Origin: Dissulfurispiraceae bacterium
GTDB lineage: Bacteria > Nitrospirota > Thermodesulfovibrionia > Thermodesulfovibrionales > Dissulfurispiraceae
Direction: 5' to 3'
Length of the DNA: 64,000 nucleotides
Assembly (NCBI GenBank): GCA_035319125.1
Contig: DATHDG010000011.1
Span: 18,820 to 82,819 of the forward strand
The notes below the pieces were generated by a model. The model made no database searches and was not told the DNA's origin. It worked only from the letters and a program-made list of their open reading frames with translations. This document shows positions 5,313-48,021 of the stretch, one piece after another. Each line of letters opens with the position of its first letter. The stretch's first letter is position 1. The position numbers were made by a program, and so were the translations under genes.

Positions 5313-5445
5313 AATATAGTGGCTATTTTACTGATAGGCTGTATATTCCGTCTCGCACGCTAATCCTTCAAGAAGCTCGCAATAATCTTTCGCGTATACT
5401 GAAGAATATTTATCTTATCCTCACCATAAATCCAGCGGTGCGATT

Positions 5446-22963: not shown

Positions 22964-22973
22964 GGACCGCTGA

Positions 22974-23267
22974 ATGAATGCAGAAAGGGCTTCCAGGCCT
23001 GAGACAGCATATGTCCGCTATGTGTTCACGTGGGCGCTTCTTCTGGCGCTGCTGATCTTGACAATAGCCATTGCAAAATTGTCTCTGCTGGCTTCCTATA
23101 GTGTGATCGGAAGTCTTTTTATTGCTACAGTCAAGGCCGGCCTGGTTTTGATGTATTTCATGCATCTGGGGCATGAAGGCCGGATTGTCAAGGGAATGCT
23201 ACTGCTGGCGGTGGCAGCGCTGTTCTTTATCATAGCCCTGACCTTCTCCGATGTATGGTTCAGGTGA
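22974..23267 (+). CDS. ctaF: prokaryotic cytochrome c oxidase subunit IV family protein
   Basis: 97 aa, three TM segments, with the KAGLVLMYFMHL block characteristic of CyoD/CtaF-type small subunits. Confidence 0.7.
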   Translation: MNAERASRPETAYVRYVFTWALLLALLILTIAIAKLSLLASYSVIGSLFIATVKAGLVLMYFMHLGHEGRIVKGMLLLAVAALFFIIALTFSDVWFR

Positions 23268-24178: not shown

Positions 24179-24180
24179 CG

Positions 24181-26287: not shown

Positions 26288-26598
26288 AGAGGATCCTCTC
26301 GATTAGCATATTTTTTCTGATTGTAACCGCCGCAGCATATTCAATTGGTGACGAGAGGCGCATTACGTTGCCAAACGTCCAGACCGACCTTGCTCCGGGA
26401 GCAGGGAAGGAGAAGGTTTCGACCCTCTGCAACATATGCCACAGTGTCGATTATATAACGATGCAACCATTGGGAACACGCGCACAGTGGGCAGCTACGG
26501 TCTCGAAGATGATCAAGGTTTTCGGCGCTCCGATTAATGAATCCGATGAGAAAATAATTATAAGCTATCTGTTCGAACACTATGGTGCGGGCAAGTAA
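26284..26598 (+). CDS. sorB: small mono-haem cytochrome c (SorB-like partner)
   Basis: 104 aa with a signal peptide and a single CNICHS motif. It has an ATGA overlap with the sorA-like stop. Confidence 0.7.
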   Translation: MKRILSISIFFLIVTAAAYSIGDERRITLPNVQTDLAPGAGKEKVSTLCNICHSVDYITMQPLGTRAQWAATVSKMIKVFGAPINESDEKIIISYLFEHYGAGK

Positions 26599-26601
26599 CA
26601 T

Positions 26602-27678
26602 TTGTTGTATAACCGAGGAGATTTTAAAATGAATATTCGTGTGCTGAGATATGCAGTCAGTATTGTGCTGGCGATTTTTGTTGCGGCGTTATCTTTTGGG
26701 CCGGCTACCGGCGCGGATGCCGATAAAGAGCTGCTTCAGCGGGCCTGTGGGATTTTCAAAGCATTGCCCAAAGCGATGGAATCAGACCAGAATCCTGTCA
26801 CACCCGCCAAGGTCAAACTAGGGAAGATGCTTTTTTATGAATCCCGCATATCCATCGATGGAACAGTCAGCTGTGCGAAATGCCACCCGATGAGCCTGTA
26901 TGCGGCTGACGGTTTGAGGAAGTCGATAGGGAACAATTGCAAGGTCAATCCGAGGAATGCCCCTACGTTGTTGAACGCGGCAGACCAGATCTCCGAACAC
27001 TGGATAGGCAATAGAACGAGCGTGGAAGATCAGGCTAAACAATCTGTGATAGGTCCGCCGGCCTTCGGTATGGTGAAATATGAAGATGTGGAAAAAAGGC
27101 TGAAGGAATATGCGGAATATGTATCAATGTTTAAGGAAGCATTCCCTGCCGACAAACAGTCTGTGACGGTCGACAATTTCGCGAAGGCGATAGGGGCCTT
27201 TGAACGCACGCTTGTCACGCCGGCAGCATTCGATGAGTATCTAAGAGGAGATGGAAAGGCCATCGATCAGGACCAGAAAACAGGCCTGAAGACCTTTATG
27301 GATATGGGCTGCGCGGGCTGCCACTCTGGAGCTTTTGTAGGCGGCCAGATGTATCAGAAGTTCGGCATTGTTGAGCCTTACTGGAAATACACAAAGAGCG
27401 GGCAGATTGATGAAGGAAGGTTTGCCGTATCGAAGGTCGAGGCGGACAAGTACGTTTTCAAGGTCCCTATACTAAGAAACGTTGAAAAGACCCCGCCGTA
27501 TTTTCATGACGGATCCGTAGACAAGCTGGAAGATGCCGTCATAATAATGGGGAAGGTTCAGCTCGGCAGGGACATCACCGGTCAGCAGACCTCGGCTATT
27601 GTCGCATTCTTAAAGTCTTTGACAGGGAAAATACCGGATGATGCGTTGATAATACCGGTGCTGCCTTCTATTGAATAA
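26602..27678 (+). CDS. di-haem cytochrome c peroxidase (CCP/MauG family)
   Basis: 358 aa with a signal peptide, CAKCHP and CAGCHSG haem motifs and the PILRNVEKTPPYFHDGS block. The probable start is ATG 26629. Confidence 0.9.
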   Translation: MLYNRGDFKMNIRVLRYAVSIVLAIFVAALSFGPATGADADKELLQRACGIFKALPKAMESDQNPVTPAKVKLGKMLFYESRISIDGTVSCAKCHPMSLYAADGLRKSIGNNCKVNPRNAPTLLNAADQISEHWIGNRTSVEDQAKQSVIGPPAFGMVKYEDVEKRLKEYAEYVSMFKEAFPADKQSVTVDNFAKAIGAFERTLVTPAAFDEYLRGDGKAIDQDQKTGLKTFMDMGCAGCHSGAFVGGQMYQKFGIVEPYWKYTKSGQIDEGRFAVSKVEADKYVFKVPILRNVEKTPPYFHDGSVDKLEDAVIIMGKVQLGRDITGQQTSAIVAFLKSLTGKIPDDALIIPVLPSIE

Positions 27679-27714
27679 GACAAATAGCAAGAATCAATAA
27701 AGGAGGAATGTAAA

Positions 27715-28050
27715 ATGAAGAAATTTTTTGCAGTATCGTCGGCGACTGTTGCTATATGCATTATGATTGCGGGAGGATCGATAGCGGCCGATAAGAAGCA
27801 CACAAAGATGTCAGGCGAGGTTGAATTCAAGAATCATTGCTCGGAGTGCCATCCGGATGGTGGTAATATCATAAATCCGGCCAAGACCTTACACGCAAAA
27901 GACCTCAAGGCTAATGGTGTTAATAAGGCGTCTGATATTGTGGCAAAGATGAGGAACCCGGGACCCGGCATGACGAAATTCGACAGAAAGACAATGCCTG
28001 ACGCTGAAGCCAAAGCAATTGCGGATTATGTAATGAAGACCTTCAAATAG
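27715..28050 (+). CDS. small soluble class I c-type cytochrome
   Basis: 111 aa with a signal peptide, CSECHP and a downstream GPGMTKF Met ligand region. AGGAGG lies upstream. Confidence 0.8.
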   Translation: MKKFFAVSSATVAICIMIAGGSIAADKKHTKMSGEVEFKNHCSECHPDGGNIINPAKTLHAKDLKANGVNKASDIVAKMRNPGPGMTKFDRKTMPDAEAKAIADYVMKTFK

Positions 28051-34273: not shown

Positions 34274-35458
34274 ATGCCCAAGAAGTACGAAACTCCATTG
34301 CTGGACGAGCTGGAGAAAGGCGCATTCCCGAGCTTTGTCACCGAGATGAAGAAAGCGGCGGCGAAGTCCGACATGGCTGCAGATGAAGTTGGCGTGCTCG
34401 AGAAGTGCTACCGTGAGAAGAAGACTCACTGGAAACATGGCGGTATCGTTGGTGTTAGAGGGTACGGAGGAGGCGTTATCGGAAGGTATTCCGATGTGCC
34501 GGAAGAATTCCCTAATGTTGCTCACTTCCATACTGTTCGTATCAATTCAGTATCGGGTCTTTTTTATACTTCAGCAGCACTTAGAACCGTTTGTGACATC
34601 TGGGACAAATATGGCAGCGGTTTGACGAATATGCACGGGTCAACCGGCGATATGGTTCTTCTCGGAACTACAACTGACAAGCTTGAGCCTGTTTTTGCTG
34701 AATTTTCATCCCGTGGATGGGACCTTGGCGGATCAGGTTCGGCCCTCAGAACGCCTAGCTGTTGTGTAGGTGCGGCAAGATGCGAATGGTCCAATATCGA
34801 CACCATGGGCATAACTTACGCCATTACTCAGGAATTCCAGGATGAGATGCACAGGCCGGCATTCCCGTATAAGTTTAAATTCAAAACCGCAGGATGCGCT
34901 TGCGACTGTATCGCCTCGATAGCTCGCGCAGACTGTTCGATCATCGGAACCTGGAAAGGCAAAATAGCCGTTGATCAGGCCCAGGTAAAGGCTTATGAGA
35001 GCAAGGGCATGAATATACAGACGGAGATCGTTGATATGTGTCCTACCGAGTGTATGAGCTATGACGGCAAAACTCTCAAGATCGACGACGCCAACTGCTC
35101 GCGCTGCATGAACTGCATTGCCAAGATGGGCAAGGCCTTAAAGGCAACTGGCGAGAAGGGTGCAACCATCCTTATAGGCAGCAAGGCCCCGTTTGTCGTC
35201 GGCGCAACTCTTTCATGGGTTATCGTTCCGTTCATTAAGATGGAGCCGCCTTACACCGATTTCTTCGATATGATCAGGAAGATGTGGGAGTGGTGGGATG
35301 AGCACGGAAAGAACAGAGAAAGAATCGGTGAGCTCATTATCCGCCGCGGCATGAGAGAGTTCCTGGAGTATGTCGGACTTGATCCGATTCCGCAGCAGGT
35401 TAAAGAGCCCAGAAGAGATCCGTTCTGGTTCTGGACCGAAGAAGATCTTGTGAAATAA
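34274..35458 (+). CDS. dsrA: dissimilatory sulfite reductase alpha subunit
   Basis: 394 aa. TPLLDELEKGAFPSFV N-terminus, sirohaem/Fe-S Cys blocks (PSCCVGAARCEW, KTAGCACDC) and a ferredoxin insert (CPTECM...CSRCMNC). GAGGAGG SD upstream. Confidence 0.95.
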   Translation: MPKKYETPLLDELEKGAFPSFVTEMKKAAAKSDMAADEVGVLEKCYREKKTHWKHGGIVGVRGYGGGVIGRYSDVPEEFPNVAHFHTVRINSVSGLFYTSAALRTVCDIWDKYGSGLTNMHGSTGDMVLLGTTTDKLEPVFAEFSSRGWDLGGSGSALRTPSCCVGAARCEWSNIDTMGITYAITQEFQDEMHRPAFPYKFKFKTAGCACDCIASIARADCSIIGTWKGKIAVDQAQVKAYESKGMNIQTEIVDMCPTECMSYDGKTLKIDDANCSRCMNCIAKMGKALKATGEKGATILIGSKAPFVVGATLSWVIVPFIKMEPPYTDFFDMIRKMWEWWDEHGKNRERIGELIIRRGMREFLEYVGLDPIPQQVKEPRRDPFWFWTEEDLVK

Positions 35459-35491
35459 TTTTTGAAAAAATAATTATACAGGAGGACTAAT

Positions 35492-36580
35492 ATGGCAGCA
35501 CCACAAAGAAGAACCGACATAGGACCACCTCATTTTAAAGACTTTCTCCCCCCAGTCATTCAGAAGAACTATGGCGATTGGGCGAATCATGAGATATTGA
35601 GCGGCGGCGTGATGGTCCATACCGCCAACAGCGGCGACAAGATTTGGACCGTCAGGTGTGCTTCACCAAGGCTGCTTAGCACTGATACGATAAGATTAGT
35701 TGCCGATATTGCAGAGAAATATTGCGGTGGCCATATGCGTTTTACCACCAGGAACAATATTGAATTTTTGGTCTCCGAGGAGAAAAACCTCAAGCCCCTG
35801 CTTGACGAATTAAAGAAAGACAAATTTTTCTTTGTCGGCGGCATGGGCGACAGCGTCCACGGCTATCACATCACCAATATCGTCCATACCCAGGGATGGA
35901 TCCATTGCCACAGCGCTTGTACTGATGCATCCGGTTTGGTAAAGGTCATCATGGACGATTTGGCCGACTACTTTAACGAGAAGACCACCCCGGGCAAGGT
36001 GAGACTGGCTGTTGCATGCTGCACCAATATGTGCGGCGCTGTCCACTGCTCTGATATTGCGATAGTTGCAATCCACAGGAAGGTCCCGAGGATCGACCAC
36101 GACAACGTGAAGAACATGTGCGAAGTTCCTTCGACCATTGCATGCTGCCCGACCGGCGCCATCAGCCCCGATCCGGCAAAGAAGAGCATCAAGATCAACA
36201 ACGACAAGTGTATGTACTGCGGAAACTGCTATTCCGTATGCCCGGCCCTCCCGATCTCGGATCCGGAGAACGACGGCGTCGCGATCGTTGCAGGCGGCAA
36301 GGTAGGCAGTCTTAGATGCGATCCGAAGTTCTCGAAGCTTGTTATTCCTTACATCCCGAACAACCCGCCGAGATGGCCTGAGGTCACAAGCGCGGTCAGG
36401 AAGATCCTCGAGGCTTATATTGCCGGCGCCAGGAAGCATGAAAGAGTCGGCGAGTGGATCGAAAGGATCGGCTGGGAGAAGTTCTTCGAAATCACTGGAT
36501 TCCCGTTCACTTTCCAGCATATCGATGACTTCACAATCGCCAGGGAGACATTCAGGACATCGGCAGCCTTTAAGTGGTAA
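35492..36580 (+). CDS. dsrB: dissimilatory sulfite reductase beta subunit
   Basis: 362 aa. [32 protein letters not shown] and a ferredoxin insert (CPTGAI...[12 protein letters not shown]). AGGAGG SD upstream. Confidence 0.95.
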
Positions 36581-36593
36581 TATGACGGCAGAA

Positions 36594-36622
36594 GGAAGGG
36601 AGCCTGCAAGGCTCCCCTTTCC
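36594..36622 (+). other. GC-rich stem-loop in the dsrB-dsrD spacer
   Basis: GGAAGGGAGCC / GGCTCCCCTTTCC pair with one bulge and a ~5-nt loop. No U tract follows. Confidence 0.4.
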
Positions 36623-36654
36623 TGTCAATTGCTGAAAGAAAGGGGTATGACATA

Positions 36655-36870
36655 ATGGAAAAAGAAGAGCTGAAAAAGAAAATATATGAGCTTGTTGAGA
36701 AGTCTATGGGCAAGAAAAAGCTCAAAGGCGGAGATATCAAGAAGACCTTCAAGGCCGAGGGAATCCCCGAGGATGAAATCAAGGATGCTCTTAAAGACCT
36801 TGTTGACGAAGGTAAGCTGATTTACACCTATTTCGGCGGCAGCTACGTGGAAATCCCCCCGAAAGAATAA
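36655..36870 (+). CDS. dsrD: DsrD
   Basis: 71 aa, Lys-rich, directly after dsrB. Its pattern aligns with my memory of Desulfovibrio DsrD: the KKIxxxV N-terminus and a C-terminal LxYxxxGGS block (here LIYTYFGGSYVEI versus LEYWSSGSTTMYGL). Confidence 0.8.
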   Translation: MEKEELKKKIYELVEKSMGKKKLKGGDIKKTFKAEGIPEDEIKDALKDLVDEGKLIYTYFGGSYVEIPPKE

Positions 36871-36894
36871 TTCTGGCTGGGATCAAATAGGAAA

Positions 36895-36938
36895 ACAAAG
36901 CGGATGGCTCTTGGTGCGCCATCCGCTTTGTTTTTTTT
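36895..36938. terminator. bidirectional rho-independent terminator (dsrD / rubredoxin)
   Basis: CAAAGCGGATGG...CCATCCGCTTTG 12-bp stem, with an A-rich tract on the left and T8 on the right. Confidence 0.8.
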
Positions 36939-36953
36939 GGTCAATATATATGG

Positions 36954-37118
36954 CTATTCTTCAACCTTTTTAAAGAACTTTTTCCCGGAGCCGCATACCG
37001 GGCATTTCCAATCTTCCGGAAGGTCTTCGAATTTTGTATCGGGCGGGATTTTACCCTTCCGATCGCCTTTCTTTTCGTTGTAAGTATAGCCGCAATTATT
37101 GCCCTGACATTGCCACAT
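36954..37118 (-). CDS. rubredoxin with C-x4-C first cysteine pair
   Basis: 54 aa, below the track cut-off. Hand translation gives [65 protein letters not shown] lies upstream. Track ORF 36941..37255 is in a different frame and is rejected. Confidence 0.85.
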
Positions 37119-37253
37119 TCTTTTCCCCCCAATTTGACTGTCTGAAAGTTATATAAAACTATATATTCATTATACTTGTTTTGCCTAACCCAAATCATGC
37201 ATGGTGAAAACGTTTTGAGCGGACGTCCGGCCGATGCGTTATAATATAAACTC

Positions 37254-38660
37254 ATGAACTATCCGAGAATAATCATTGCCGGGGTGCGAGGAGGCAGCGG
37301 TAAGACGACCGTTTCACTATCATTGACGGCATCATTAAGGTCCCATTGCAACCTGAAGGTGGTCCCTTACAAAAAAGGGCCCGACTATATCGACGCCGGA
37401 TGGCTCTCTCTCGCTGCTAAGCGGCCCTGCTACAACCTTGATCCGTTTCTTGTTGCAAAGGATGAAGTTGCCCGGTCCTTCGTTGCCCACTTTGAAGGCG
37501 ATATGGCCGTCATCGAAGGGAACAGGGGGCTTTTTGACGGAATGGATGTTGAAGGATCATTCAGCACGGCCGAGCTTGCAAAGCTGCTTAATGCTCCAGT
37601 GATACTTGTTGTGGATTGCACAAAGATGACCAGAACCTCTGCCGCGGTAATTCAGGGATTGATGAGTTTTGACAAGGGACTGGGTATCAAGGGAGTAGTG
37701 TTGAACCAATTGGCTGGAGCTCGCCATGAGTCCATAATACGGCAGTCGGTGGAGAAGTATTGCAGCGTTGCAGTTGTCGGCGCCATCCCTCGGCTCAAGG
37801 CTGGAGAAATGCCTGAACGGCACATGGGTCTTACCCCTTATCAGGAGCACGAAAACACAACTGGAGTTATATCATTTGCTAAAGGGCTGGGAGAAAAATA
37901 TCTCGACCTGACCGCAATAGTGGCTATCGCTGAATCGGCAGGCCCTCTGACCCTGATTGCAACAACCATTGATCGGGATAAAAGCGCGGCTTCGGCATCT
38001 GTAGTCCGTATAGGCGTTTTCAGGGATGCGGCGTTTCAGTTTTACTATCCGGAGAATTTTGAAGAGCTTCGACGTTTAGGTGCAGAGATAGTTGAAATAG
38101 ATGCAATTGATGGTGGCAGTCTGCCAGAGGTTGATGCTTTGTATATTGGCGGCGGTTTTCCGGAAACCAATGCGCTGAAGCTTGCAGAGAATACATCCTT
38201 CCGGGAACATGTAAAGTCTGCAGCCGAAAAAGGCCTGCCTATCTATGCCGAATGCGGAGGCCTGATGTTTTTGGGCGATGCTATCATTATGAATGGACAG
38301 AGATATCCGATGGCCGGCGTATTCCCTCTCGTCTTTGATATGAAACCGAAGCCCCAGGCTCACGGATACACTATTGTTGATGTGGTAGGCGAGAATCCTT
38401 TTTATCCTGAAGGTACCGTTCTTCACGGGCATGAGTTCCATTATTCCTCTGTGGTCGAGATCCGTGACCCGGAAGGTTATCGGCTTGCGTTCAGCATGAA
38501 ACGTGGAAAGGGAATCGGCGAGCAAGCTGACGGCATCTGCTATAAGAACGTACTTGCAACTTATACGCATGTTCATGCCCTCGGAACGCCTGGATGGGCG
38601 CGGGGGTTGATAGATAAAGCAAAGGAGTACAAAGAAAAGAATGACAAAATACACGCCTGA
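37254..38660 (+). CDS. dsrN: cobyrinic acid a,c-diamide synthase homologue (sirohaem amidase DsrN)
   Basis: 468 aa. P-loop GVRGGSGKTTVS and a C-terminal glutamine amidotransferase domain (YAECGGLMFL, HEFHYS). Position is inside the dsr locus. Confidence 0.85.
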   Translation: MNYPRIIIAGVRGGSGKTTVSLSLTASLRSHCNLKVVPYKKGPDYIDAGWLSLAAKRPCYNLDPFLVAKDEVARSFVAHFEGDMAVIEGNRGLFDGMDVEGSFSTAELAKLLNAPVILVVDCTKMTRTSAAVIQGLMSFDKGLGIKGVVLNQLAGARHESIIRQSVEKYCSVAVVGAIPRLKAGEMPERHMGLTPYQEHENTTGVISFAKGLGEKYLDLTAIVAIAESAGPLTLIATTIDRDKSAASASVVRIGVFRDAAFQFYYPENFEELRRLGAEIVEIDAIDGGSLPEVDALYIGGGFPETNALKLAENTSFREHVKSAAEKGLPIYAECGGLMFLGDAIIMNGQRYPMAGVFPLVFDMKPKPQAHGYTIVDVVGENPFYPEGTVLHGHEFHYSSVVEIRDPEGYRLAFSMKRGKGIGEQADGICYKNVLATYTHVHALGTPGWARGLIDKAKEYKEKNDKIHA

Positions 38661-39654
38661 ATGCCCTTTTTGCAGCAGACCAATAGCAAGACCGAAGCCG
38701 ACACGGACTGAATTTGTCGAGATCATCAGCGGCAAGTGTGATTGCGGAGCAGTGTATGTCTGCGATCCGACGGGCCACAATGTTGGAGAGGCTTATAGCG
38801 ACGCTATAGCTGTGGCAACCGGAGAGTGGAGTATAAGCGACATGGATACCGAGAGTTATGATCTAAAAGAGATGGACTATGATCTCAAGAGTCACAGCAT
38901 GATATATGCCAAAGGTCTAAAGGTCCAGGCCGGCAAACTCATATTTATTAAACTGGGCAAGAAGGACGAGAAGGTGTCCGAGGCCGTAGGCGCCGCATCC
39001 GATGCAGGACTGCCGGACGACCCTGCTGTTGCCGGGATGAAGCTCAAGGATCAGATCCGATATTTTCTCGAAATGAAGCGTCCTGATGCGATTGGTAAAA
39101 TCGCTGTCAAGGACAAGAATGTCATAAAGTGGCTTATTTCGTTCTCGTACGACAAAGAGGGCGTAATGACGTGGCGAGCTATAGAGGCTATGGGATATGT
39201 CGCCAAGGAGCTTGGCGCGGCCCGTCAGGACATCCTTAGGGATGCTGTGCGCAAGCTGCTTTGGTCTATGGGCGACGAGTCGGGAGGCATCGGCTGGAGC
39301 GCACCGGAATTTCTTGGTGAAATCGTCCGGAGAGTGCCGGATTCATTCAGCGATCTGGTTCCAATTCTCTGGTCCAACCGGGAAGAGGCAAGCTTCAGGC
39401 CAGGTGTTGTATGGGCTATGATACGTATTGCTGAAGTAAGACCCAACCTGCCTGATATTGCTGCTGGCGAGTTATCAGAGCTAGCTGAAGATCCAAGCCC
39501 GACAGTTCGAGGCTATACTGCCGTATTGGCAAAATTAATCCACTCGGACTGCAAAAACGAGATTTTGCTTAAATTGTCAGAAGATTTAGACACTTTGTTC
39601 TATTTCCGAAATGGCGAACTCAATTCGGTCACTGTGGCAGAGCTAGCTGGTTAG
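38641..39654 (+). CDS. hypothetical protein: N-terminal Cys4 zinc-ribbon-like module + C-terminal helical-repeat (HEAT-like) region
   Basis: 337 aa. CPFC...CDC near the N-terminus and a helical C-terminal half. The start overlaps the dsrN end by 20 nt. Confidence 0.6.
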   Translation: MTKYTPECPFCSRPIARPKPTRTEFVEIISGKCDCGAVYVCDPTGHNVGEAYSDAIAVATGEWSISDMDTESYDLKEMDYDLKSHSMIYAKGLKVQAGKLIFIKLGKKDEKVSEAVGAASDAGLPDDPAVAGMKLKDQIRYFLEMKRPDAIGKIAVKDKNVIKWLISFSYDKEGVMTWRAIEAMGYVAKELGAARQDILRDAVRKLLWSMGDESGGIGWSAPEFLGEIVRRVPDSFSDLVPILWSNREEASFRPGVVWAMIRIAEVRPNLPDIAAGELSELAEDPSPTVRGYTAVLAKLIHSDCKNEILLKLSEDLDTLFYFRNGELNSVTVAELAG

Positions 39655-39813
39655 GAAAATGGATAAGCACTGTAAATGTATTTATAATTTTATTTAATTT
39701 GACCCCGAAGTTGACTCTATATTATTTTTTAACACTCGTAAAATCGCGCATACCGAAATACTGAGTATATATGATTATGCGAAAAACTATAATGACGAAA
39801 GGAGGTAGCACAA

Positions 39814-40149
39814 ATGGCCTTACTTGAGTTCGGTGGAAAATCTGTTGAAGTTGATGAGGATGGTTATCTCGTCAATCTTGACGATTGGACAAAAGAGCTT
39901 GGTGAGCACATGGCGTCTCAAGACGGTCTTGCGCTTACAGAAGCTCATTGGGAAGTCATCAATTTCCTTCGGGATTACTATGCCAAGTATCAGATTGCTC
40001 CTATGATCAAGATTCTCGTTAAGGAGATTGGAAAGGTAATGGGCCCTGAAAAGGGAAACACAAAATACCTGTACGAGCTTTTCCCGGATGGGCCGGCAAA
40101 GCAGGCCTGCAGATATGCGGGACTTCCTAAGCCGACCGGTTGCGTCTAA
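39814..40149 (+). CDS. dsrC: DsrC (TusE/DsrC/DsvC family) with both conserved C-terminal cysteines
   Basis: 111 aa. DEDGYL, WTKEL and HWEVINFLRDYY blocks, with C-terminus CRYAGLPKPTGCV (Cys at -3 and at -13 from the end). AGGAGG SD upstream. Confidence 0.95.
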   Translation: MALLEFGGKSVEVDEDGYLVNLDDWTKELGEHMASQDGLALTEAHWEVINFLRDYYAKYQIAPMIKILVKEIGKVMGPEKGNTKYLYELFPDGPAKQACRYAGLPKPTGCV

Positions 40150-40170
40150 TCTTTTCAAAGGAATCAGATT

Positions 40171-40208
40171 CAGGGGGATAATCCACCGTAAGGAGGGTTA
40201 TCCCCCTG
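40171..40208 (+). terminator. strong hairpin 22 nt after dsrC stop (terminator or mRNA-stabilising element)
   Basis: An 11-bp perfect stem CAGGGGGATAA / TTATCCCCCTG with a 16-nt loop. No clear U tract follows. Confidence 0.5.
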
Positions 40209-40359
40209 TTCAAGAGAGTTATACCATTATGAAAAAGTATTGTGAAAGGGTTAGGGGGACTGTCTTGTCTGTGCGTCATATGTCTATCTTGTTGAATCCA
40301 CTTTCTATTTTGTCCTTATCTCCCTCTGTACCGCGCCTGTTTTCAGTGGGAGGCCCAAA

Positions 40360-40938
40360 TTGAAGCTTGACGAGCTTCTTAAGAAGCAGCGATCTTCAAT
40401 CATCGACAAGTGGTTTAACCGTATTATTTCTTCGTATCCTGACGACACAGCTGAATTCCTGAGAAAGAAAAGCGGATTTGCTAACCCGGTAGGGCAGACA
40501 ACATTCCAGGGAATTCAGGATATCTTTGACGGACTTCTCCTTGACGCAGAACCTACCGAGATAGAACCCTTTCTCGATTCCATTATCAGGGTGAGGGCAG
40601 TTCAGAATTTCAGCCCGTCCGAGGCAGTGGATTTTATCTATCAGCTTAAGAAGATCATACGCGAAGAGATATCGGCCTCTTTTAAGGATGCCGAGATTAG
40701 GGGCGAGTTGGAGTCGCTGGATTCACGAATAGATTCTCTTGCCCTGCTCAGTTTCGATATCTTCATGAAATGTAGGGAAAAATTGTACGATATAAAGGCC
40801 AATGAGTTGCGAGACAGGACGCTCTGGCTGCTAAAGAAGTCGAACCTACTGACTGAAACACCGGATGAAACTGAAAAACAGGGTGGTGTCGACATGGGTA
40901 AAAATATTAACACTAATGAGACGAAAGAGGTAAGGTAA
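40360..40938 (+). CDS. hypothetical protein in the DsrT position (abuts dsrM)
   Basis: 192 aa (TTG start). The stop TAA is immediately followed by the dsrM ATG. The assignment as DsrT-like is positional plus a vague resemblance to RsbRD-N-type helical proteins. Confidence 0.5.
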   Translation: MKLDELLKKQRSSIIDKWFNRIISSYPDDTAEFLRKKSGFANPVGQTTFQGIQDIFDGLLLDAEPTEIEPFLDSIIRVRAVQNFSPSEAVDFIYQLKKIIREEISASFKDAEIRGELESLDSRIDSLALLSFDIFMKCREKLYDIKANELRDRTLWLLKKSNLLTETPDETEKQGGVDMGKNINTNETKEVR

Positions 40939-41931
40939 ATGGGTATCGCATTTTCTTTTGCGGCGGTCATTGCATTGATAGTGCTGGCCTTTTTCGGGGT
41001 TGCGGTATTGAACCTGCAGATTCTTTTCGGGGTGGTCTTTCCATATGCGGCCTTCCTGGCGTTTATCGTCGGGTTTGTATTAAAGGTCGTTAAATGGGGG
41101 CGCTCACCGGTTCCGTTTCGCATCCCTACCACAGGCGGGCAAGGTTATTCCTTCTCCTGGATTGAGCAGAACAAGCTGGACAGTCCTCCAAATGGATTGT
41201 GGGTGATCGGCAGAATGCTTCTGGAAGTTCTGGTATTTCGTTCCCTCTTCAGGAACACCAAGTCAGAACTCAACAGCGGCAAGCTGGTTCACGGCTCCGA
41301 GAAATTCTTATGGTTATTTGGCCTGATTTTTCACTGGTCTTTTTTGATAGTGCTGGTAAGGCATTTCAGGTTTTTTATGGTAAACGTTCCATTGCCGATC
41401 AAGATAATGGAAGCCTTGGATTCATTCTTCCAGGTGGGCGTGCCGTTGGTTTATATTACGGACTTAACATTGCTGCTTGGTGTCACTTACCTTTTCATCA
41501 GAAGGGTGCTCATGCCGCAGATCAGATTCATATCGCTGCCTGCAGACTACTTCCCGCTGTTACTTATTTTTGCAGTTGCGACTACGGGAATACTTATGAG
41601 ATATTTCATAAGGGTGGATATAGTAGGTGTAAAGCAGGTGACAATGGGGCTTGTGAGCTTGCACCCGGTAGCGCCTAATTCAATAGGCTCTATCTTCTAC
41701 ATACATCTCTTCCTTGTGAGCGTGCTTTTCGCCTATTTCCCCTTCAGCAAACTCATGCATATGGGAGGAGTGTTCATGAGTCCGACGAGGAACCTGGCTA
41801 ACAATAGCCGCATGGTCAGGCACGTAAACCCGTGGAACTACCCTGTCCATGTACATACTTATGCTGAGTATGAAGACGAGTTTAGAGAAAAAATGATAAA
41901 GGCTGGCTTGCCAGTGGAAAAGGAGCAATAA
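40939..41931 (+). CDS. dsrM: DsrM (NarI-like haem b membrane subunit)
   Basis: 330 aa, polytopic, with His residues in TM helices. It is first of a tightly coupled MKJOP series (TAATG overlap with dsrK). Confidence 0.9.
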   Translation: MGIAFSFAAVIALIVLAFFGVAVLNLQILFGVVFPYAAFLAFIVGFVLKVVKWGRSPVPFRIPTTGGQGYSFSWIEQNKLDSPPNGLWVIGRMLLEVLVFRSLFRNTKSELNSGKLVHGSEKFLWLFGLIFHWSFLIVLVRHFRFFMVNVPLPIKIMEALDSFFQVGVPLVYITDLTLLLGVTYLFIRRVLMPQIRFISLPADYFPLLLIFAVATTGILMRYFIRVDIVGVKQVTMGLVSLHPVAPNSIGSIFYIHLFLVSVLFAYFPFSKLMHMGGVFMSPTRNLANNSRMVRHVNPWNYPVHVHTYAEYEDEFREKMIKAGLPVEKEQ

Positions 41932-43535
41932 TGGCAAAGATCCCTAAACCCGAACAACTTTCAAAAATAGATCTTAAGCCGAAGAGGCATTGGTCGCAGT
42001 TCCCCATTGATATCCGGCCCGGCATGTATTGCCACGGTGCAAAGGGTAAGGACCTTAAGACCCTTGAACTGCCTAATGCACGGGACTGGTCTCCAGCCGA
42101 AGCAGACTGGAAACTCCCTGAGGATTGGAAACAGACGGTTTTAGACGGAATCAAGCAGAGGCTTGAGAGGTATCGCTCATTTCATATTTTTATGGATGTA
42201 TGCGTAAGATGCGGCGCGTGCGCTGACAAATGCCACTTTTTCCTCGGCTCTGGCGATTCCAGAAATATGCCGGTGGTCAGGGCTGAAATACTCAGGTCTG
42301 TTTACCGTCATTATTTCACCCCGGCAGGCAAACTCTTTGGCAAATATGCCGGTGCGCGCGAACTGACCTTGGATGTGCTCAAGGAATGGTGGTACTATTT
42401 CTACCAGTGCACGGAATGCCGCCGCTGTTCGCTTTTCTGCCCGTACGGCATCGACCAGGCCGAAATAACTATCATAGGCCGCGAGCTGATGAACCTTCTG
42501 GGTCTCAACATTGGCTGGATCACCGGGCCGGCAGCAAACTGTTACATGAAAGGCAACCATCTTGGGCTGGAGCCACACACGATCAAGAGCAGTATAGAGT
42601 TTTTCCTGAGCGACATCGAAGATATCACTGGGATTAAAATCGAGCCGACATTCAACAGAAAAGGCGCGGAGATACTATTCGTCACACCTTCAGGAGACCT
42701 GTTCGCTGATCCCGGTACATATACTGCTATGGGATATCTGATGCTCTTCCATGAACTCGGACTCGACTACACCTGGAGCACATACGCCTCGGAAGGCGGC
42801 AACTTCGGCTTCTTCACATCAATGGAGATGGCGAAGCGGCTTAACTCCAAGATATACGCCGAAGCGAAGAGGCTTGGTGTGAAATGGATACTTGGCGGCG
42901 AGTGCGGTCATATGTGGAGGGTCCTGCATCAATATATGGATACCTTCAACGGTCCAGCAGATTTTCTCGAGGAGCCGGTATCGCCGATCACGGGCACCAA
43001 GTTCGACAATGCCAAGGCGACCAAGATGGTTCATATCGTCGAGTTTACGGCCGACCTTATCAAAAACGGAAAACTCAAGCTTGATCCAAGCAGGAACGAT
43101 GACCTTATAGTGACCTATCACGACTCCTGCAATCCGGCCAGAGGAATGGGCTTCTTTGAAGAACCCAGATATGTGATAAAGAGCGTATGCAACCACTTCC
43201 ATGAGATGCCGGAAGATACGATCCGCGAGCAGACATTCTGCTGTGGCAGCGGGTCGGGCCTCAATGCAAGCGAGGACATGGAACTCAGGATGAGAGGCGG
43301 CTTCCCAAGGGCAAATGCAGTCAAACATGTACGCGACAAGCACGGCGTCAATATGCTGGCCAATATATGCGCTATCGACAGGGCTACGCTACCTCCGCTC
43401 ATGGATTACTGGGTGCCTGGTGTAAGAGTGACAGGAACTCACGAACTCGTTGCAAACGCGCTGGTTATGAAGGGCGAGAAAGAGAGAGAGACCAACCTTC
43501 GGGCCGAACCTCTTCCCGGAAAGGGGGGTGAATAA
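41931..43535 (+). CDS. dsrK: DsrK (HdrD-like Fe-S subunit)
   Basis: 534 aa. CVRCGACADKCHFF and CTECRRCSLFCPYG cluster motifs, plus CCG-type regions (YHDSCNPARG, TFCCGSGSG). Confidence 0.9.
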   Translation: MAKIPKPEQLSKIDLKPKRHWSQFPIDIRPGMYCHGAKGKDLKTLELPNARDWSPAEADWKLPEDWKQTVLDGIKQRLERYRSFHIFMDVCVRCGACADKCHFFLGSGDSRNMPVVRAEILRSVYRHYFTPAGKLFGKYAGARELTLDVLKEWWYYFYQCTECRRCSLFCPYGIDQAEITIIGRELMNLLGLNIGWITGPAANCYMKGNHLGLEPHTIKSSIEFFLSDIEDITGIKIEPTFNRKGAEILFVTPSGDLFADPGTYTAMGYLMLFHELGLDYTWSTYASEGGNFGFFTSMEMAKRLNSKIYAEAKRLGVKWILGGECGHMWRVLHQYMDTFNGPADFLEEPVSPITGTKFDNAKATKMVHIVEFTADLIKNGKLKLDPSRNDDLIVTYHDSCNPARGMGFFEEPRYVIKSVCNHFHEMPEDTIREQTFCCGSGSGLNASEDMELRMRGGFPRANAVKHVRDKHGVNMLANICAIDRATLPPLMDYWVPGVRVTGTHELVANALVMKGEKERETNLRAEPLPGKGGE

Positions 43536-43537
43536 TC

Positions 43538-44302
43538 ATGTACGACAGCGGAAAGATTATAGCCGGACTGATTATTTTCATCGTTATAGCATCACTTCCC
43601 TTCACGATGAATCTGGGTAAGGCTTCAATAAAACCTGAACCGAGCATTAATACCTTTGCCATCAATCAGATGGCGAAGAAACAGTGTATCGAGAGCAAGG
43701 CCTATATGAAAACCACCCATATGCAGATGCTGAACAACTGGAGGGATGAGGTGGTGCGTGACGGCAACAGGCTGTATGTTGCTTCAGACGGCAAAGAATA
43801 CAACATGAGCTTGCAGAATACCTGCATGCATTGCCATACGAATAAGGATAAGTTCTGCGATGAATGCCATAACTATGTTGCGGTCAAGCCCTATTGCTGG
43901 GATTGTCATATTGTTCCGAAGGAAGGCGCATTCGTACCGGTCGCGGCAAAAGCAGCTCCGGCACCGGCAGCTGTTCCAGGCCCTATCAATGTGCACTTTG
44001 CGGTCGGCAAGTATGATATTCCGGATGAGGCTCAGCACGGACTGACAGCATTGGCCGCGTATCTTCAGAAAAATGAGTCTGCCAGTGTTGTCATTTCCGG
44101 CTATACGGATAAAACCGGAGACCCGGCAAAGAACGAAGAACTGGCCAAGAATAGAGCCAAAGCCGTACGCGAGGTCTTCCGTGCGGCGGGCATTTCCGAT
44201 GAGCGCATTGTTATGAAGAAACCTGAGGTCATAACGGGCAGCGCGGACAATGCTGAAGCACGCCGTGTCGACGTCAGCATTGCAGAAGGGAAGGGGGTTT
44301 AG
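43538..44302 (+). CDS. dsrJ: DsrJ tri-haem cytochrome c fused to a C-terminal OmpA-like domain
   Basis: 254 aa. N-terminal anchor, conserved QCIES...HMQMLNNWRD block, and three CxxCH motifs (CMHCH 43823-43837, CDECH, CWDCH). An Ala/Pro linker follows, then SGYTDKTGDPAKNEELAKNRAKAV...ARRVDVSI (OmpA_C-type). Confidence 0.85.
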   Translation: MYDSGKIIAGLIIFIVIASLPFTMNLGKASIKPEPSINTFAINQMAKKQCIESKAYMKTTHMQMLNNWRDEVVRDGNRLYVASDGKEYNMSLQNTCMHCHTNKDKFCDECHNYVAVKPYCWDCHIVPKEGAFVPVAAKAAPAPAAVPGPINVHFAVGKYDIPDEAQHGLTALAAYLQKNESASVVISGYTDKTGDPAKNEELAKNRAKAVREVFRAAGISDERIVMKKPEVITGSADNAEARRVDVSIAEGKGV

Positions 44303-44304
44303 CG

Positions 44305-45114
44305 ATGGGTGTGAACAGACGCGAATTTCTGAAATTTGTAAGCATGTCGACCCTGCTTGGTCTAGGCGGCACTACTGTTGCAGCTTCGGTCAAGAAGGAA
44401 CTGGAGGCCTCCGGGCCATATATCCCTGATCCGAAGGGAATCAATGCTAAAAGATGGGCTATGGCAGTAGATATGAGAAAGTTCAAATCTGATGAAGATA
44501 TTCAAAAGTGCATTGACGCCTGTCATCAGGTTCATAATGTGCCTGAAGCTGATCCAGCTCATCCGACGCAGGAGATAAAATGGATATGGACTGAATCTTA
44601 CGAACGTGCTTTCCCCGGCAACGAGGATGAATATCTTGCTGCTCATTATAAGCACATGCCGTTTCTTATACTTTGCAACCATTGCGAAAACCCTCCGTGT
44701 GTCAGAGTCTGTCCGACAAAGGCAACGTTCAAGCGTCACACAGACGGCATTGTCATGATGGACATGCACCGATGCATCGGCTGCCGTTTTTGCATGGCGG
44801 CTTGTCCATATGGAGCCAGAAGCTTTAACTTCAGAGACCCTCGTCCTTTTATCAAGAGGGATCTGAATCAGGAGTTTCCAACGAGGACAAAGGGTGTCGT
44901 GGAGAAATGCACCTTCTGCTATGAGAGGTTGGCAAAGGGCCTGCAGCCTGCCTGCGCTGAGATTTCAAACGGAGCTATAGCCTTTGGAGATTTAGATGAT
45001 CCGGAATCCCCAGTCAGGAAGGTAATCGACAATAACTTCACCATTAGACGCAAGCCCGAGCTTGGCACCCATCCAAGTGTCTATTATGTTATAGGAGGAC
45101 AGGAACATGCTTGA
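44305..45114 (+). CDS. dsrO: DsrO (periplasmic 4Fe-4S ferredoxin subunit, Tat leader)
   Basis: 269 aa. NRREFLKF twin-arginine leader, then [26 protein letters not shown] and CTFCYERL. Confidence 0.9.
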
Positions 45115-46276
45115 GAAAGCCCTCAAAGGAGGCAGAACATACTGGACATGGGTGGCAGCTCTGCTGGCTGTTATAGGCGTCGGAGTTGCTTGTTATATTT
45201 ATCAATTCTTTATGGGATTGGGTATCACCGGCATGAGCAGGGACGTGTCCTGGGGGTTTTACATCGCTCAGTTCACCTTTCTGGTCGGGGTCGCTGCTTC
45301 GGGCGTCATGGTGGTCCTGCCCTTTTACCTGCATGACTACAAGGCGTTCGGAAAGATAACTATCCTTGGCGAGTTCTTAGCAATACCTGCGGTACTAATG
45401 TGCATGCTTTTCATATTTGTGGATATGGGGCAGCCCCTTAGGGTACTTAACGTGTTGCTTCATCCGACACTCAATTCGGTCATGTTTTACGACATGTGTG
45501 TTTTGGCCGGCTATCTTGTGCTCAATATTCTGGTCGGATGGACATCTCTGGGCGCAGAACGCAAGGGAGTTGCACCTCCAAAATGGGTCAAACCCTTTGT
45601 GATCCTTTCGATAGCATGGGCGCCGTCCATTCATACTGTTACGGCGTTTCTATACGCAGGTCTTCCTGGCAGGCACTTCTGGCTTTCGGCTATAATGGCT
45701 GCCCGATTCCTCGCATCGGCCTTCGCAGGAGGTCCTGCGCTGCTCATAATACTTGCCCTGATCGTCAGGAAGTACTCAAAGTTCGATCCCGGCAAAGAGG
45801 CTATCCAGACGCTTGGTAAGATAGTAACCTATTTCATGATCACGAGCACCTTCTTCCTCGGTCTCGAATTCTTTACGGCGTTCTACAGCGGCATACCGGG
45901 GCACATGCAGTCGTTTATTTATCTTTATAAAGGGCTGGAAGGACATCACCAGCTGGTTCCGCTTATGTGGATATCCACGATATTTGCGGTTATCGCATTG
46001 TGCATACTGGTATTCCCGTTCCTCAGGAGAAACGAGACAATCCTGGCCATCGCCGCGGGTTTGGTATTCATTTCGCTCTGGATCGACAAGGGATTCGGTC
46101 TTATAGTTGGAGGCTTCGTCCCCAATCCTTTCGAGGGCATTACCGAATATTGGCCTACAACTCCCGAGTTTCTAATTGCTGCTGGAGTATGGGCAATCGG
46201 ATTCCTGGTTCTTACTATTCTGTACAAGATTGCTGTTTCAATAAAGGAAGAGAGCGGAGGAGAGGCAATTCACTGA
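45107..46276 (+). CDS. dsrP: DsrP (NrfD/PsrC-like membrane subunit)
   Basis: 389 aa with about ten TM segments. It overlaps the dsrO end by 8 nt. Confidence 0.9.
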
Positions 46277-46287
46277 TTTAGGTTGAA

Positions 46288-46320
46288 GGAAGCCCGTTTT
46301 ATAGGGCTTCCTGTTTGATT
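46288..46320 (+). terminator. hairpin after dsrP (possible partial terminator)
   Basis: GGAAGCCC / GGGCTTCC 8-bp stem with an 8-nt loop, followed by TGTTTGATT. Confidence 0.4.
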
Positions 46321-46411
46321 GACAACGAAGTAAGTTCATCTGTTATATTAAATTAAGCAAGCGCTCTGATACGAATTTCGTATGAGCTCATATATCAAGG
46401 AGGTGACGTTA

Positions 46412-46597
46412 ATGTATTTGGTTACAGTTGATACTGGAAAGTGCGACGGTTGTGAGGAGTGCGTCAATGCCTGTCCTCAGATGGTATTCAAGATAACGGA
46501 TGGCAAGAGCGATCCTTACCAATCCGGCGAATGCGTTTTCTGTGAGACTTGTCTCAGCATGTGCCCGACCGGCGCAATTACGATCACTGAAATGTAG
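46412..46597 (+). CDS. small 2x[4Fe-4S] ferredoxin
   Basis: 61 aa from ATG 46412 (AAGGAGGTG SD upstream). CDGCEECVNACP and CVFCETCLSMCP motifs. The track start at 46382 is less likely. Confidence 0.8.
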   Translation: MYLVTVDTGKCDGCEECVNACPQMVFKITDGKSDPYQSGECVFCETCLSMCPTGAITITEM

Positions 46598-46618
46598 CAG
46601 ATATCTGCTTCCGGAAAT

Positions 46619-46655
46619 AAAAAAAAGGAGCATCCGACCGATGCTCCTTTTTTTT
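46619..46655. terminator. bidirectional rho-independent terminator (ferredoxin / tusA)
   Basis: A-run, then GGAGCATC stem, 5-nt loop, GATGCTCC stem, then T-run. It is shared by convergent transcription units. Confidence 0.8.
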
Positions 46656-46674
46656 ATTTTGATATTTCAGGCGG

Positions 46675-46920
46675 TTACTTCTTTTGGATATAGATTTCCC
46701 AGTGGTCGCCAGTCTTTTCGACCTCTATGGGATAGCCTTGCTTCTCGGCGTACCGCGGAATTGAGTCTTCGGCCGAAGCAGGGGCATCGCAGAGGACCTT
46801 GAGAAGCGAGCCGGAGGCCATCTTCTCGATCTGCTTTTTGGTCAATACTAGCGGGTAGGGGCATACCCTTCCGAGTACGTCCAGTACTTCAGTAGGTGTC
46901 TGAGCTTTTAAATCTCCCAT
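46675..46920 (-). CDS. tusA: TusA/SirA family sulfurtransferase
   Basis: 81 aa with the LDVLGRVCPYPLVLTKK active-site Cys-Pro motif. Confidence 0.85.
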   Translation of the reverse strand: MGDLKAQTPTEVLDVLGRVCPYPLVLTKKQIEKMASGSLLKVLCDAPASAEDSIPRYAEKQGYPIEVEKTGDHWEIYIQKK

Positions 46921-46937
46921 TGTCTTCCTCCTTTAGT

Positions 46938-47351
46938 TTAAAAAAACTGCACATGGTTGACCGATTCCATTGCCTTCTGTATCTCGCTGTATGGCACGAT
47001 CTGGGCCCTGGTTTCGCCTCCGAGATCTTCGGCATCCATTATCAGGCTATCCTCCGTGATGCCGAAACGGTCGAGATCCTCCTTGCAGATCAATACATTA
47101 AGGTCAAGCAGCAAAGAGTTTTTAATATGCTGTTCAAGGCTTGTAACGTCATAATGCTTTCCAGCCGCCTGATTCTTGAGACAGTTGAGGACTCCGTCTC
47201 CGATGAAGCAGACTACCGGTTCCACCATGTCGCCGTCTTCGAGATAGATTTCGACAGTCTGGCTGGCAATGGCATGGGTCATGGCAAGGCGCGAAGCCTC
47301 TGTTTTGTACGGAAGTGATCTGACTACGAATGCAAGTTTTGTAGTAGCCAT
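46938..47351 (-). CDS. DsrF/TusC-like protein
   Basis: 137 aa. VCFIGDGVLNCL and ICKEDLDRFGI blocks align with my memory of DsrF/TusC (FxxDGV ... DLxxRGl). The C-terminus ends with F. Confidence 0.65.
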   Translation of the reverse strand: MATTKLAFVVRSLPYKTEASRLAMTHAIASQTVEIYLEDGDMVEPVVCFIGDGVLNCLKNQAAGKHYDVTSLEQHIKNSLLLDLNVLICKEDLDRFGITEDSLIMDAEDLGGETRAQIVPYSEIQKAMESVNHVQFF

Positions 47352-47352
47352 C

Positions 47353-47715
47353 TTATTCGCCTCCTATCATCAGTACTCTGTCAGCATCGAAACTGCTAGC
47401 CAGGTACCAGTCCATGCTCTTGCGGATCCAGCCTTCCATCAGATCTTCTTTATGAAATCCCCTGGCTTCTGCACACGCCTCGCAGGCGCAAGCCTTGAAG
47501 TTGCCGGTAGCAAAAAGTTCATCGAGTGTTTTATAAAGGGTAGAATAGTCTTTGAAGGCGCGCTGTCCCTTCTTTGAGAGCATAGTTGCATTTGAAGATA
47601 CCCAGAAATCGACTTTGTGGCCTTTTTTCACCGCTGCTTCTGAGAGTTTGACCGCGAAGTCGAGAGAGAGTGATCCTACGAGACCCGGAAATACGCCCAT
47701 AGTCAGTTTTCCCAT
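47353..47715 (-). CDS. DsrE/TusD-like protein retaining the active-site-position Cys
   Basis: 120 aa. FKACACEACAEARGF aligns with the DsrE block VVCVAAAQRRGI, with the Cys conserved. Confidence 0.65.
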   Translation of the reverse strand: MGKLTMGVFPGLVGSLSLDFAVKLSEAAVKKGHKVDFWVSSNATMLSKKGQRAFKDYSTLYKTLDELFATGNFKACACEACAEARGFHKEDLMEGWIRKSMDWYLASSFDADRVLMIGGE

Positions 47716-47724
47716 TATATCCTC

Positions 47725-48021
47725 CTATACCCAAATAATCTTTTCGTAGTCGTTGAAGATGAGATCAACTACATCGCCGTAAGTAACGGCTTTGACATTG
47801 CCGGGGAGATTCGCTGCAGTGAATCCCCTGCTTTCCAGGTCTTCCGTCAGAACATAAAAGGTTGCGGATTTCTTGAGGATCGGGTCTGCGCTGCCACCGT
47901 CTTTGACTGTTGCGCGGTAGATACCATTTCCGACGAAGATAATGCCGAGCTTGTCAGCGCTCAACCTGTCTACAACATCTGCGCCGGTGCGGTAATCGCT
48001 CATAAATACACCAAGTTTCAT
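47725..48021 (-). CDS. DsrH/TusB-like protein
   Basis: Track ORF trimmed to ATG 48021 (AGGAGGTG SD upstream), giving 98 aa: IIFVGNGIY...FYVLTEDLESRGF...VTYGDVVDLI...IIWV, which fits the DsrH/TusB pattern. Confidence 0.65.
   Translation of the reverse strand: MKLGVFMSDYRTGADVVDRLSADKLGIIFVGNGIYRATVKDGGSADPILKKSATFYVLTEDLESRGFTAANLPGNVKAVTYGDVVDLIFNDYEKIIWV

Follow-up and report, generated by a model that had tools for sequence, protein, structure and literature searches.

We analyzed a 64,000-nucleotide stretch of DNA (the window) from an uncultured soil/peat bacterium of the Dissulfurispiraceae (Nitrospirota, Thermodesulfovibrionia), which carries a dsr locus at positions 34274-48021, as delimited by open reading frame (ORF) listing and Pfam/NCBIfam scans. 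The locus has two parts that face each other: a plus-strand series running from dsrA through a probable dsrD, dsrN, dsrC and dsrT-dsrMKJOP to a small ferredoxin gene (fdx), and a convergent minus-strand operon, H-E-F-tusA, which encodes DsrH-, DsrE- and DsrF-like proteins (together, the triad) and the sulfur carrier TusA. On balance, comparison with characterized homologs favors the view that a complete reductive-type Dsr system is joined here to dsrH-dsrE-dsrF-tusA, which would give it a sulfur relay for disproportionation or oxidation.

All of the listed genes lie at the coordinates in Table 1. The inventory of an earlier note on this DNA (DsrAB, DsrD, DsrN, two-Cys DsrC and dsrT-dsrMKJOP) holds, the dsrD call being made on weak sequence evidence together with position and fold. 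DsrM, DsrK, DsrJ, DsrO and DsrP each score above their NCBIfam equivalog cutoff, and the start and stop codons from dsrT through dsrMKJOP abut or overlap, in agreement with the tightly coupled operon that the note had described. Its convergent DsrH-, DsrE- and DsrF-like genes with tusA downstream were likewise recovered in the Pfam scans and by coordinates; the gaps between H, E, F and tusA are 9, 1 and 17 bp, and the four genes thus form a single operon. The note had also stated that dsrL is missing from the window, and a search for DsrL homologs was indeed negative there, as it was in 79 of 80 related loci. None of sat, apr, qmo, sqr, sox and yeeE is among the gene calls of the whole window. 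Finally, the SorAB-like and caa3-type module that the note had seen nearby was found with Pfam and NCBIfam, SorA and SorB scoring below their cutoffs. DsrC keeps Cys99 and Cys110 in 69 of 69 sequences and ends in PTGCV.

Table 1. Features of the dsr locus and of the neighboring oxidase and sulfite dehydrogenase modules (window coordinates; scores in bits).
Feature	Position	Strand	Evidence
dsrA	34274-35458	+	TIGR02064, 514; PDB A. fulgidus DsrA, 494
dsrB	35492-36580	+	TIGR02066, 480
Divergent dsrD (probable), 71 aa	36655-36870	+	Pfam DsrD, 20.2 (cutoff 24.2)
Rubredoxin gene between dsrD and dsrN	36954-37118	-	PF00301 on a gene call in L001
dsrN, siroheme amidase (CobB-like a,c-diamide synthase)	37254-38660	+	Pfam CbiA and GATase_3; NCBIfam CobB, 430
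DVU0298-family HEAT-repeat protein between dsrN and dsrC	38641-39654	+	NF045662, 147; kept in relatives
dsrC, full length, two redox-active C-terminal Cys	39814-40149	+	Pfam DsrC, 156
dsrT (RsbRD_N domain protein)	40360-40938	+	PF14361, 74; stop abuts dsrM start
dsrMKJOP membrane complex	40939-46276	+	NCBIfam DsrM 527, DsrK 737, DsrJ 185, DsrO 306, DsrP 472
fdx, 2x[4Fe-4S] ferredoxin, 71 aa	46382-46597	+	Pfam Fer4 families; synteny with H-E-F in relatives
Palindromic hairpin, likely bidirectional terminator	46615-46659		Hairpin scan: 20-pair stem, flanking A and T runs
tusA, sulfur carrier, last in the H-E-F-tusA operon	46675-46920	-	Pfam TusA, 77
Non-canonical dsrF-like	46938-47351	-	Pfam DsrE family, 40.6; TusC/DsrF TIGR03010, 32.2 (cutoff 94.15)
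Non-canonical dsrE-like	47353-47715	-	Pfam DsrE, 27.4; TIGR03012, 18.3 (cutoff 89.25)
Non-canonical dsrH-like, first in the operon	47725-48021	-	Pfam DsrH, 37.4; TIGR03011, 39.7 (cutoff 49.2)
caa3-type cytochrome c oxidase cluster, SCO1-COX1-COX3-COX4-COX2(cyt c)-CtaB	19901-25026	+	Pfam; NCBIfam CoxB 181, CtaD 665
SorA-like and SorB-like sulfite dehydrogenase	25088-26598	+	NF052245, 515 (cutoff 600); NF052246, 90.7 (cutoff 93)
SorAB-like genes, then MauG/CCP-like di-heme protein and small cytochrome c	25088-28050	+	Pfam gene calls

The type of DsrAB was judged from neighbor-joining (NJ; distance) trees with one oxidative reference per subunit. For DsrA this was the rdsrA product of SUP05 phage Lau218, taken from the phage collection after the search for an oxidative DsrA in the plasmid collection had given no match; for DsrB it was the protein of the Nitrospirota metagenome-assembled genome (MAG) Hainich-H51-bin250-1 (L043), in which dsrL directly follows dsrB and which was typed as oxidative by Mosley et al. 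2024 (PMC11033732). Both window subunits group with Ca. Sulfobium and Thermodesulfovibrio MAGs in a clade of Nitrospirota that adjoins the Firmicutes sulfate reducers Desulfosporosinus and Acididesulfobacillus, and a long branch sets the oxidative references apart. The window proteins are 42.5% (A) and 47.3% (B) identical to these references, and the Firmicutes reducers are 42-44% (A) and 48-52% (B) identical to them. Because the latter are equally distant from the oxidative references, the window DsrAB is classed, by sequence, as reductive bacterial type and not as an intermediate. The earlier note had called the Dsr reductive-type and had suggested a DsrAB phylogeny as a check; these trees, grouping the window with reducers and away from the oxidative branch, support that call.

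The 71-amino-acid gene after dsrB is probably a divergent dsrD, a call based on a weak sequence match, a fixed position and the predicted fold. DsrD activates reductive DsrAB. The window protein stays below the Pfam DsrD cutoff (Table 1), 9 of 14 orthologs match that family (best E 6.6e-6), and a profile search retrieves D. vulgaris DsvD (1UCR) at a weak E of 0.25. The fold predicted by AlphaFold2 (AF2; pLDDT 91.6) is that of a winged helix, with Z-alpha and DsrD (1wq2/1ucr) among its matches at TM ~0.7 and 22-23% identity; the E-values are weak throughout, and many other winged helices match equally well. The gene is always found directly after dsrB and is labeled “hypothetical” in databases almost throughout. 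Such labeling explains the reports that Thermodesulfovibrionia “lack dsrD”.

The triad proteins are remote from their characterized counterparts. Their best NCBIfam matches are the shared TusB/DsrH, TusC/DsrF and TusD/DsrE models, in each case below the equivalog cutoff (Table 1), and their identity to A. vinosum DsrEFH or E. coli TusBCD is 18-26%. A phmmer search of the PDB returned DsrH (2hy5_C) for H at E 0.11, with ~26% identity counted from the alignment, only spurious PPR-repeat matches and a weak YchN for E, and no match for F; as this was uninformative, structure and profile comparisons were used. With hhalign, H aligned to E. coli TusB (94% probability, 21% identity) and F to E. coli TusC (86% probability, 25% identity), while the alignment of E to TusD was weak (E 0.015, 26% identity), pairing residues 20-91 with 19-91 and Cys78 with Cys78. 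The AF2 model of E (pLDDT 92.1) matched A. vinosum DsrE (2hy5_A) in Foldseek at TM 0.83 and 18% identity, and also YchN (TM 0.80) and TusD (TM 0.76; 19% identity to 2d1p_A). E is thus predicted by its model to have the DsrE fold.

Conservation of cysteines sets the subunits apart. Cys78 and Cys81 of E, within the motif CEACAEARG, are invariant (157 of 157 sequences), and an RG pair comes six residues after Cys78 (x6-RG), a spacing shared with TusD and DsrE. F has Cys89 in 38 of 38 sequences and TusA has Cys20, in a CPYP motif, in 27 of 27; H is free of cysteine in all 38 sequences. The E family is compact, with 116 representatives (50% clustering) at E < 1e-3 and six at E < 1e-30, and the canonical TusD/DsrE cutoff was reached by none of the 64 distant members scanned.

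Gene linkage was followed in 80 genomes fetched around DsrK, in which 54 loci were informative for the triad. In 36 of these 54 loci the whole triad is found no more than 10 kb from dsrK; four of the negative loci belong to Firmicutes. Three arrangements were seen. In the window (A1), dsrP-fdx faces tusA-F-E-H; in the second (A2, e.g., a Ca. Sulfobium MAG), dsrP-fdx-H-E-F-tusA runs along one strand; and in the third (A3, e.g., GWC2_57_13), the triad sits inside the operon without tusA, as dsrABD-N-C-(fdx)-H-E-F-dsrT-MKJOP. The genes on the far side of the triad are variable and unrelated (SpoIIE, OEP, ThiC, TonB, MreB and GyrA by Pfam). The nearest relatives outside these genomes also keep the H-E-F order: archaeal contigs have H-E-F-dsrM-dsrK-thioredoxin clusters, which score 99-107 bits with the E profile and are counted as type II in PMC13293266 (see below), and one further relative (L097; GCA_964606475.1, CAZSHE010000038.1) has H-E-F-tusA-dsrK-dsrM-dsrC-dsrA-dsrB.

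Several details of these loci deserve mention. The A3-type Nitrospirota MAGs (L032-L038, L046, L061, L062, L069, L075, L080 and L085) keep the dsrD-like gene, and their DsrAB form a clade of their own, sister to that of the window. The L097 locus is compact and lies on one strand; it amounts to a minimal Dsr system headed by the sulfur relay. In all three Nitrospirota arrangements, a small 2x[4Fe-4S] ferredoxin adjoins H-E-F (window 46382-46597; near 6900 in L032, L061, L069, L075 and L080), and in the archaeal relative L096 a NIL-Fer4 protein (5193-5600) is encoded directly upstream of H. The recurrence of the ferredoxin beside the triad and the NIL-Fer4 gene upstream of archaeal H suggest that the ferredoxin is functionally tied to the triad.

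Type II DsrEFH were defined by Plum-Jensen et al. (ISME J 2026; PMC13293266) by less than 30% identity to type I and by conservation of one Cys of E (Cys67 of E. aureum, which corresponds to A. vinosum Cys78). According to that study, type II occurs in 985 genomes, 73.9% of them with reductive dsrAB; its subtype 1, the subtype nearest type I, is 57% Nitrospirota; bacterial type II clusters are syntenic with tusA and yeeE/yedE and archaeal ones with dsrMK; and the type II proteins of cable bacteria transfer sulfur from TusA to DsrE to DsrC in vitro. The window triad is most likely a non-canonical DsrEFH of the type II kind, subtype 1 (the Nitrospirota-rich subtype), as placed by the published description rather than by the authors' hidden Markov models (HMMs) or sequences; the E-profile scores of the archaeal clusters lend this placement indirect support. 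It has in common with type II three syntenic genes of DsrE, DsrF and DsrH folds with tusA in the same operon, identity to type I of less than 30% (18% for E to 2hy5_A, and E 0.11 for H to 2hy5_C), an active-site Cys of E that is conserved and precedes RG, and co-occurrence with reductive-type dsrAB in Nitrospirota, with a type II carrier, Dissulfurispira thermophila, in the same family.

There are also differences from type II as described. The cluster here is physically attached to the dsr operon, Pfam still recognizes window F and H, while annotation had missed the cable-bacterial proteins, and the active Cys is residue 78, not 67, and is paired with the invariant Cys81. The order is H-E-F-tusA, as opposed to yeeE-tusA-E-F-H in the cable-bacterial (YTD) clusters, an earlier-named group that type II includes, and yeeE/yedE was not found in the loci examined: a BLAST search with E. 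coli YeeE, which is an insensitive probe, and Pfam scans of the neighboring genes gave none in the window or the 80 loci. Since yeeE was not found and the far-side neighbors are unrelated, the locus is not a YTD cluster; it may be type II in a wider sense.

Distant matches to the E profile were considered as a route to the YTD DsrE, and none of the three belongs to a yeeE-tusA cluster: P0142 is a Thermoplasmata family, P0148 adjoins a cytochrome bd oxidase and P0175 lies in an sHdr-like cluster. Distant triads in E-F-H order were seen in L101 (3973-6461), within an sHdr-like cluster (HdrA, HdrC, HdrB-like, TusA, two DsrE-family proteins and a GcvH-like protein), and in L100 (4227-6062), beside cytochrome bd oxidase genes.

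The canonical type I system of A. vinosum (PDB 2HY5) resembles that of the window in fold (TM 0.83 for E to 2hy5_A), in three-subunit logic, in the equivalent position of Cys78 and in a neighborhood with dsrC and dsrMK. It is unlike it in sequence, with 18% (E) and ~26% (H) identity and no significant phmmer match for E and F, in gene order (dsrE-F-H, as opposed to H-E-F) and in the conserved Cys that window H lacks; moreover, the triad here accompanies reductive DsrAB and DsrD, without DsrL. The earlier note had labeled the triad genes oxidative-type and had read the locus as a combination of reductive and oxidative markers. Neither description stands. The triad belongs to a separate, non-canonical lineage, at 18-26% identity and below the canonical equivalog cutoffs, and since type II DsrEFH typically accompanies reductive DsrAB (PMC13293266), the locus is not a mixture of two systems.

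The genotype itself, reductive dsr with dsrEFH-like genes, is already described in papers from 2018-2026. Nitrospirota genomes with both dsrD and dsrEFH were reported by Anantharaman 2018, as cited in later work, and by Klier et al. 2024 (PMC11406059), and Mosley et al. 2024 (PMC11033732) found Thermodesulfovibrionia with reductive dsrAB that score for dsrF and dsrH, not for dsrE and dsrD; the weak E and D scores in the window predict exactly this pattern. These genomes share phylum and mixed marker genotype with the window, as far as the 2018 study is represented by its citations. The mixed genomes of Klier et al. fall between the reductive and oxidative DsrAB clades, often with dsrL, whereas the window DsrAB is no nearer the oxidative references than are those of Firmicutes reducers, and dsrL was not found. 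Diao et al. 2023 used stricter DsrEFH detection and did not flag these lineages.

What is added here is the placement of the triad within the dsr locus itself in this lineage, in three arrangements and without yeeE, together with the H-E-F order, the invariant CxxC in E and the cysteine-free H. This bears on marker surveys that split sulfate reducers from sulfur oxidizers by dsrD versus dsrEFH; the split fails for soil and aquifer Nitrospirota, because dsrD and dsrE fall below standard HMM cutoffs here while dsrF and dsrH pass. If the relay does run a reducer-type Dsr oxidatively, the abundant Dissulfurispiraceae of peat and soil would recycle reduced sulfur and not only produce it.

Starting from the gene identities, DsrAB type, E fold, conserved cysteines and dsr linkage given above, and drawing on homologs for sulfur transfer, its direction and the physiology, we propose the following relay. 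Cys20 of TusA would carry sulfane sulfur as a persulfide and hand it to Cys78 of DsrE within a DsrEFH complex, which would in turn persulfidate DsrC. DsrMKJOP could then turn the persulfide on DsrC into the DsrC trisulfide and deliver electrons to quinone, and DsrAB working in reverse would release sulfite, to be oxidized by the SorAB-like enzyme or by an APS reductase and Sat encoded elsewhere. Such a relay would serve as the oxidative entry point to a reducer-type Dsr that disproportionation of S0 or thiosulfate needs, and would also suit sulfur oxidation coupled to the neighboring caa3 oxidase. This physiology is plausible as the current literature hypothesis for the genotype, and it would agree with that of D. 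thermophila, a relative that disproportionates S0 and thiosulfate and is the only cultured member of the Dissulfurispiraceae named in the tables of PMC13293266, where it is listed as a type II carrier.

Several observations weigh against oxidative use of the locus. A probable DsrD, the activator of reductive DsrAB, is present; sat, aprAB, qmo and sqr are not among the genes of the window; yeeE, a feature of the bacterial YTD clusters, was found neither by the insensitive YeeE search of the window and the 80 loci nor by the Pfam scans of neighboring genes; cysteine is missing from H, and E has, besides Cys78, a second invariant one, Cys81; and the type II assignment itself follows the published description and not the original HMMs. 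In addition, sulfate or sulfite reduction is the described metabolism of 35 of the 46 cultured carriers of type II (PMC13293266), and the triad need therefore not signal oxidation.

These points feed an alternative that we consider rather unlikely while giving it real weight, namely that the organism is an ordinary sulfate/sulfite reducer in which the DsrEFH-like proteins and TusA serve the reductive pathway or the handling of DsrC, for example by loading and unloading sulfur on DsrC or by resolving the DsrC trisulfide, with no oxidative or disproportionating capacity. The reductive-type DsrAB and the dsrD-like gene would fit such an organism, as would the reducing habit of most cultured carriers of non-canonical DsrEFH, the grouping of the triad with dsrMK and dsrC in lineages that lack oxidative markers, and the failure to find dsrL and yeeE in the window. 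The CxxC of E (C78 and C81; 157 of 157) could also serve thiol-disulfide chemistry rather than a simple persulfide relay. Three facts argue the other way: the in vitro transfer by type II proteins runs from TusA through DsrE to DsrC, which is the oxidative loading direction (PMC13293266); D. thermophila, the one cultured family member that the tables of PMC13293266 name, appears there as disproportionating S0 and thiosulfate; and the locus has genes for a sulfite dehydrogenase and an oxygen reductase as neighbors. The relay for disproportionation or oxidation is the favored account.

A more speculative reading, which we regard as doubtful, makes H-E-F a third DsrEFH lineage, apart from type I and the YTD clusters, that evolved alongside DsrMK and DsrC, belonged to Dsr systems from the start and might act as a redox-active handler of the DsrC persulfide or trisulfide rather than as a one-way donor. 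Its basis is the invariant CxxC in E, the lack of Cys in H and the constant company of dsrMK, dsrC or a small ferredoxin.

It is very improbable that the three small proteins are generic TusBCD acting with TusA in tRNA 2-thiouridine synthesis, next to dsr by coincidence. Many E-like homologs are named “tRNA 2-thiouridine synthesizing protein D” in IMG, the shared TusB/DsrH, TusC/DsrF and TusD/DsrE models are the best NCBIfam matches, and E. coli TusBCD/TusA/TusE (PDB 2D1P) offers homologous folds, a TusA partner and an acceptor of the DsrC/TusE family. However, H, E and F each score far below their equivalog cutoff, identity to the E. coli proteins is 21-26%, the order is H-E-F as opposed to D-C-B in E. 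coli, the context is dsr as opposed to ribosomal genes, and the acceptor is a bona fide two-Cys DsrC. The profile check for generic TusBCD that the earlier note had proposed thus shows the triad to be something else. The linkage to dsr, conserved in three arrangements, one of them intra-operon between dsrC and dsrT, and repeated in more distant relatives beside dsrMK, dsrC and dsrAB, rules out TusBCD genes placed there by chance, and this reading was rejected.

We give almost no credence to an assembly chimera joined at the repeated hairpin between fdx and tusA: three assemblies break within 46391-46930 and contig k141_1511323 (L004) has an unrelated 238-nt stretch (1-238) left of the hairpin, but contig k141_1202496 crosses it from the dsr side and continues through tusA to ~46930 (by coordinate arithmetic), a JGI contig passes from the H-E-F side through it into fdx at 100% identity, and the same layout recurs in a 1.93-Mb contig and at least 17 other genomes.

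The junction that brings dsrP-fdx next to tusA-F-E-H is therefore genuine, the hairpin having been crossed by two short-read contigs from opposite sides and the layout recurring in the 1.93-Mb contig and in many genomes. The same DNA, identical, is present in ENA assembly ERZ27251270 and in JGI metagenomes 3300017944 and 3300017947. The closest DsrK is that of the Dissulfurispiraceae MAG SMAG_U12386 (99%), followed by one at 97% on the 1.93-Mb contig (L011; CAVTNL010000001.1) of MAG MFD04752.bin.2.24. Short-read assemblies break between fdx and tusA at the 46615-46659 hairpin, and the palindrome is the simplest explanation for this. The 238-nt head of k141_1511323 matches neither the window nor any of the 80 related loci; compared with the hairpin as a possible fold-back, it proved not to be one, and a graph mis-join at the terminator is its probable origin. 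A 620-bp contig from the same ENA sample (L009) corresponds to window 46411-47034 and is 88% identical over fdx-tusA-F, and thus a second, related strain with the same junction coexists in the sample.

The SorAB-like and caa3 modules lie 8-14 kb upstream of the dsr locus. COX2 of the caa3 cluster includes a cytochrome c domain, and CtaB is heme O synthase.

Within dsrMKJOP, DsrJ (43538-44302; 254 aa) continues in frame into an OmpA-like peptidoglycan-binding domain at its C terminus (residues 154-226), its three-heme cytochrome part giving the NCBIfam match at residues 1-124. The fusion is confined to the window, L010 and L017, all Dissulfurispiraceae; in the other 77 dsrJ-bearing loci DsrJ has 126-146 aa, except for the copy in L087, which is truncated by the contig end. 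Unrelated to the dsr locus, the window also encodes a SagB-type nitroreductase-fold dehydrogenase (12806-14440) and, on the minus strand, a CdhD-like protein, a ferredoxin and a MazE-like protein (16227-18428).

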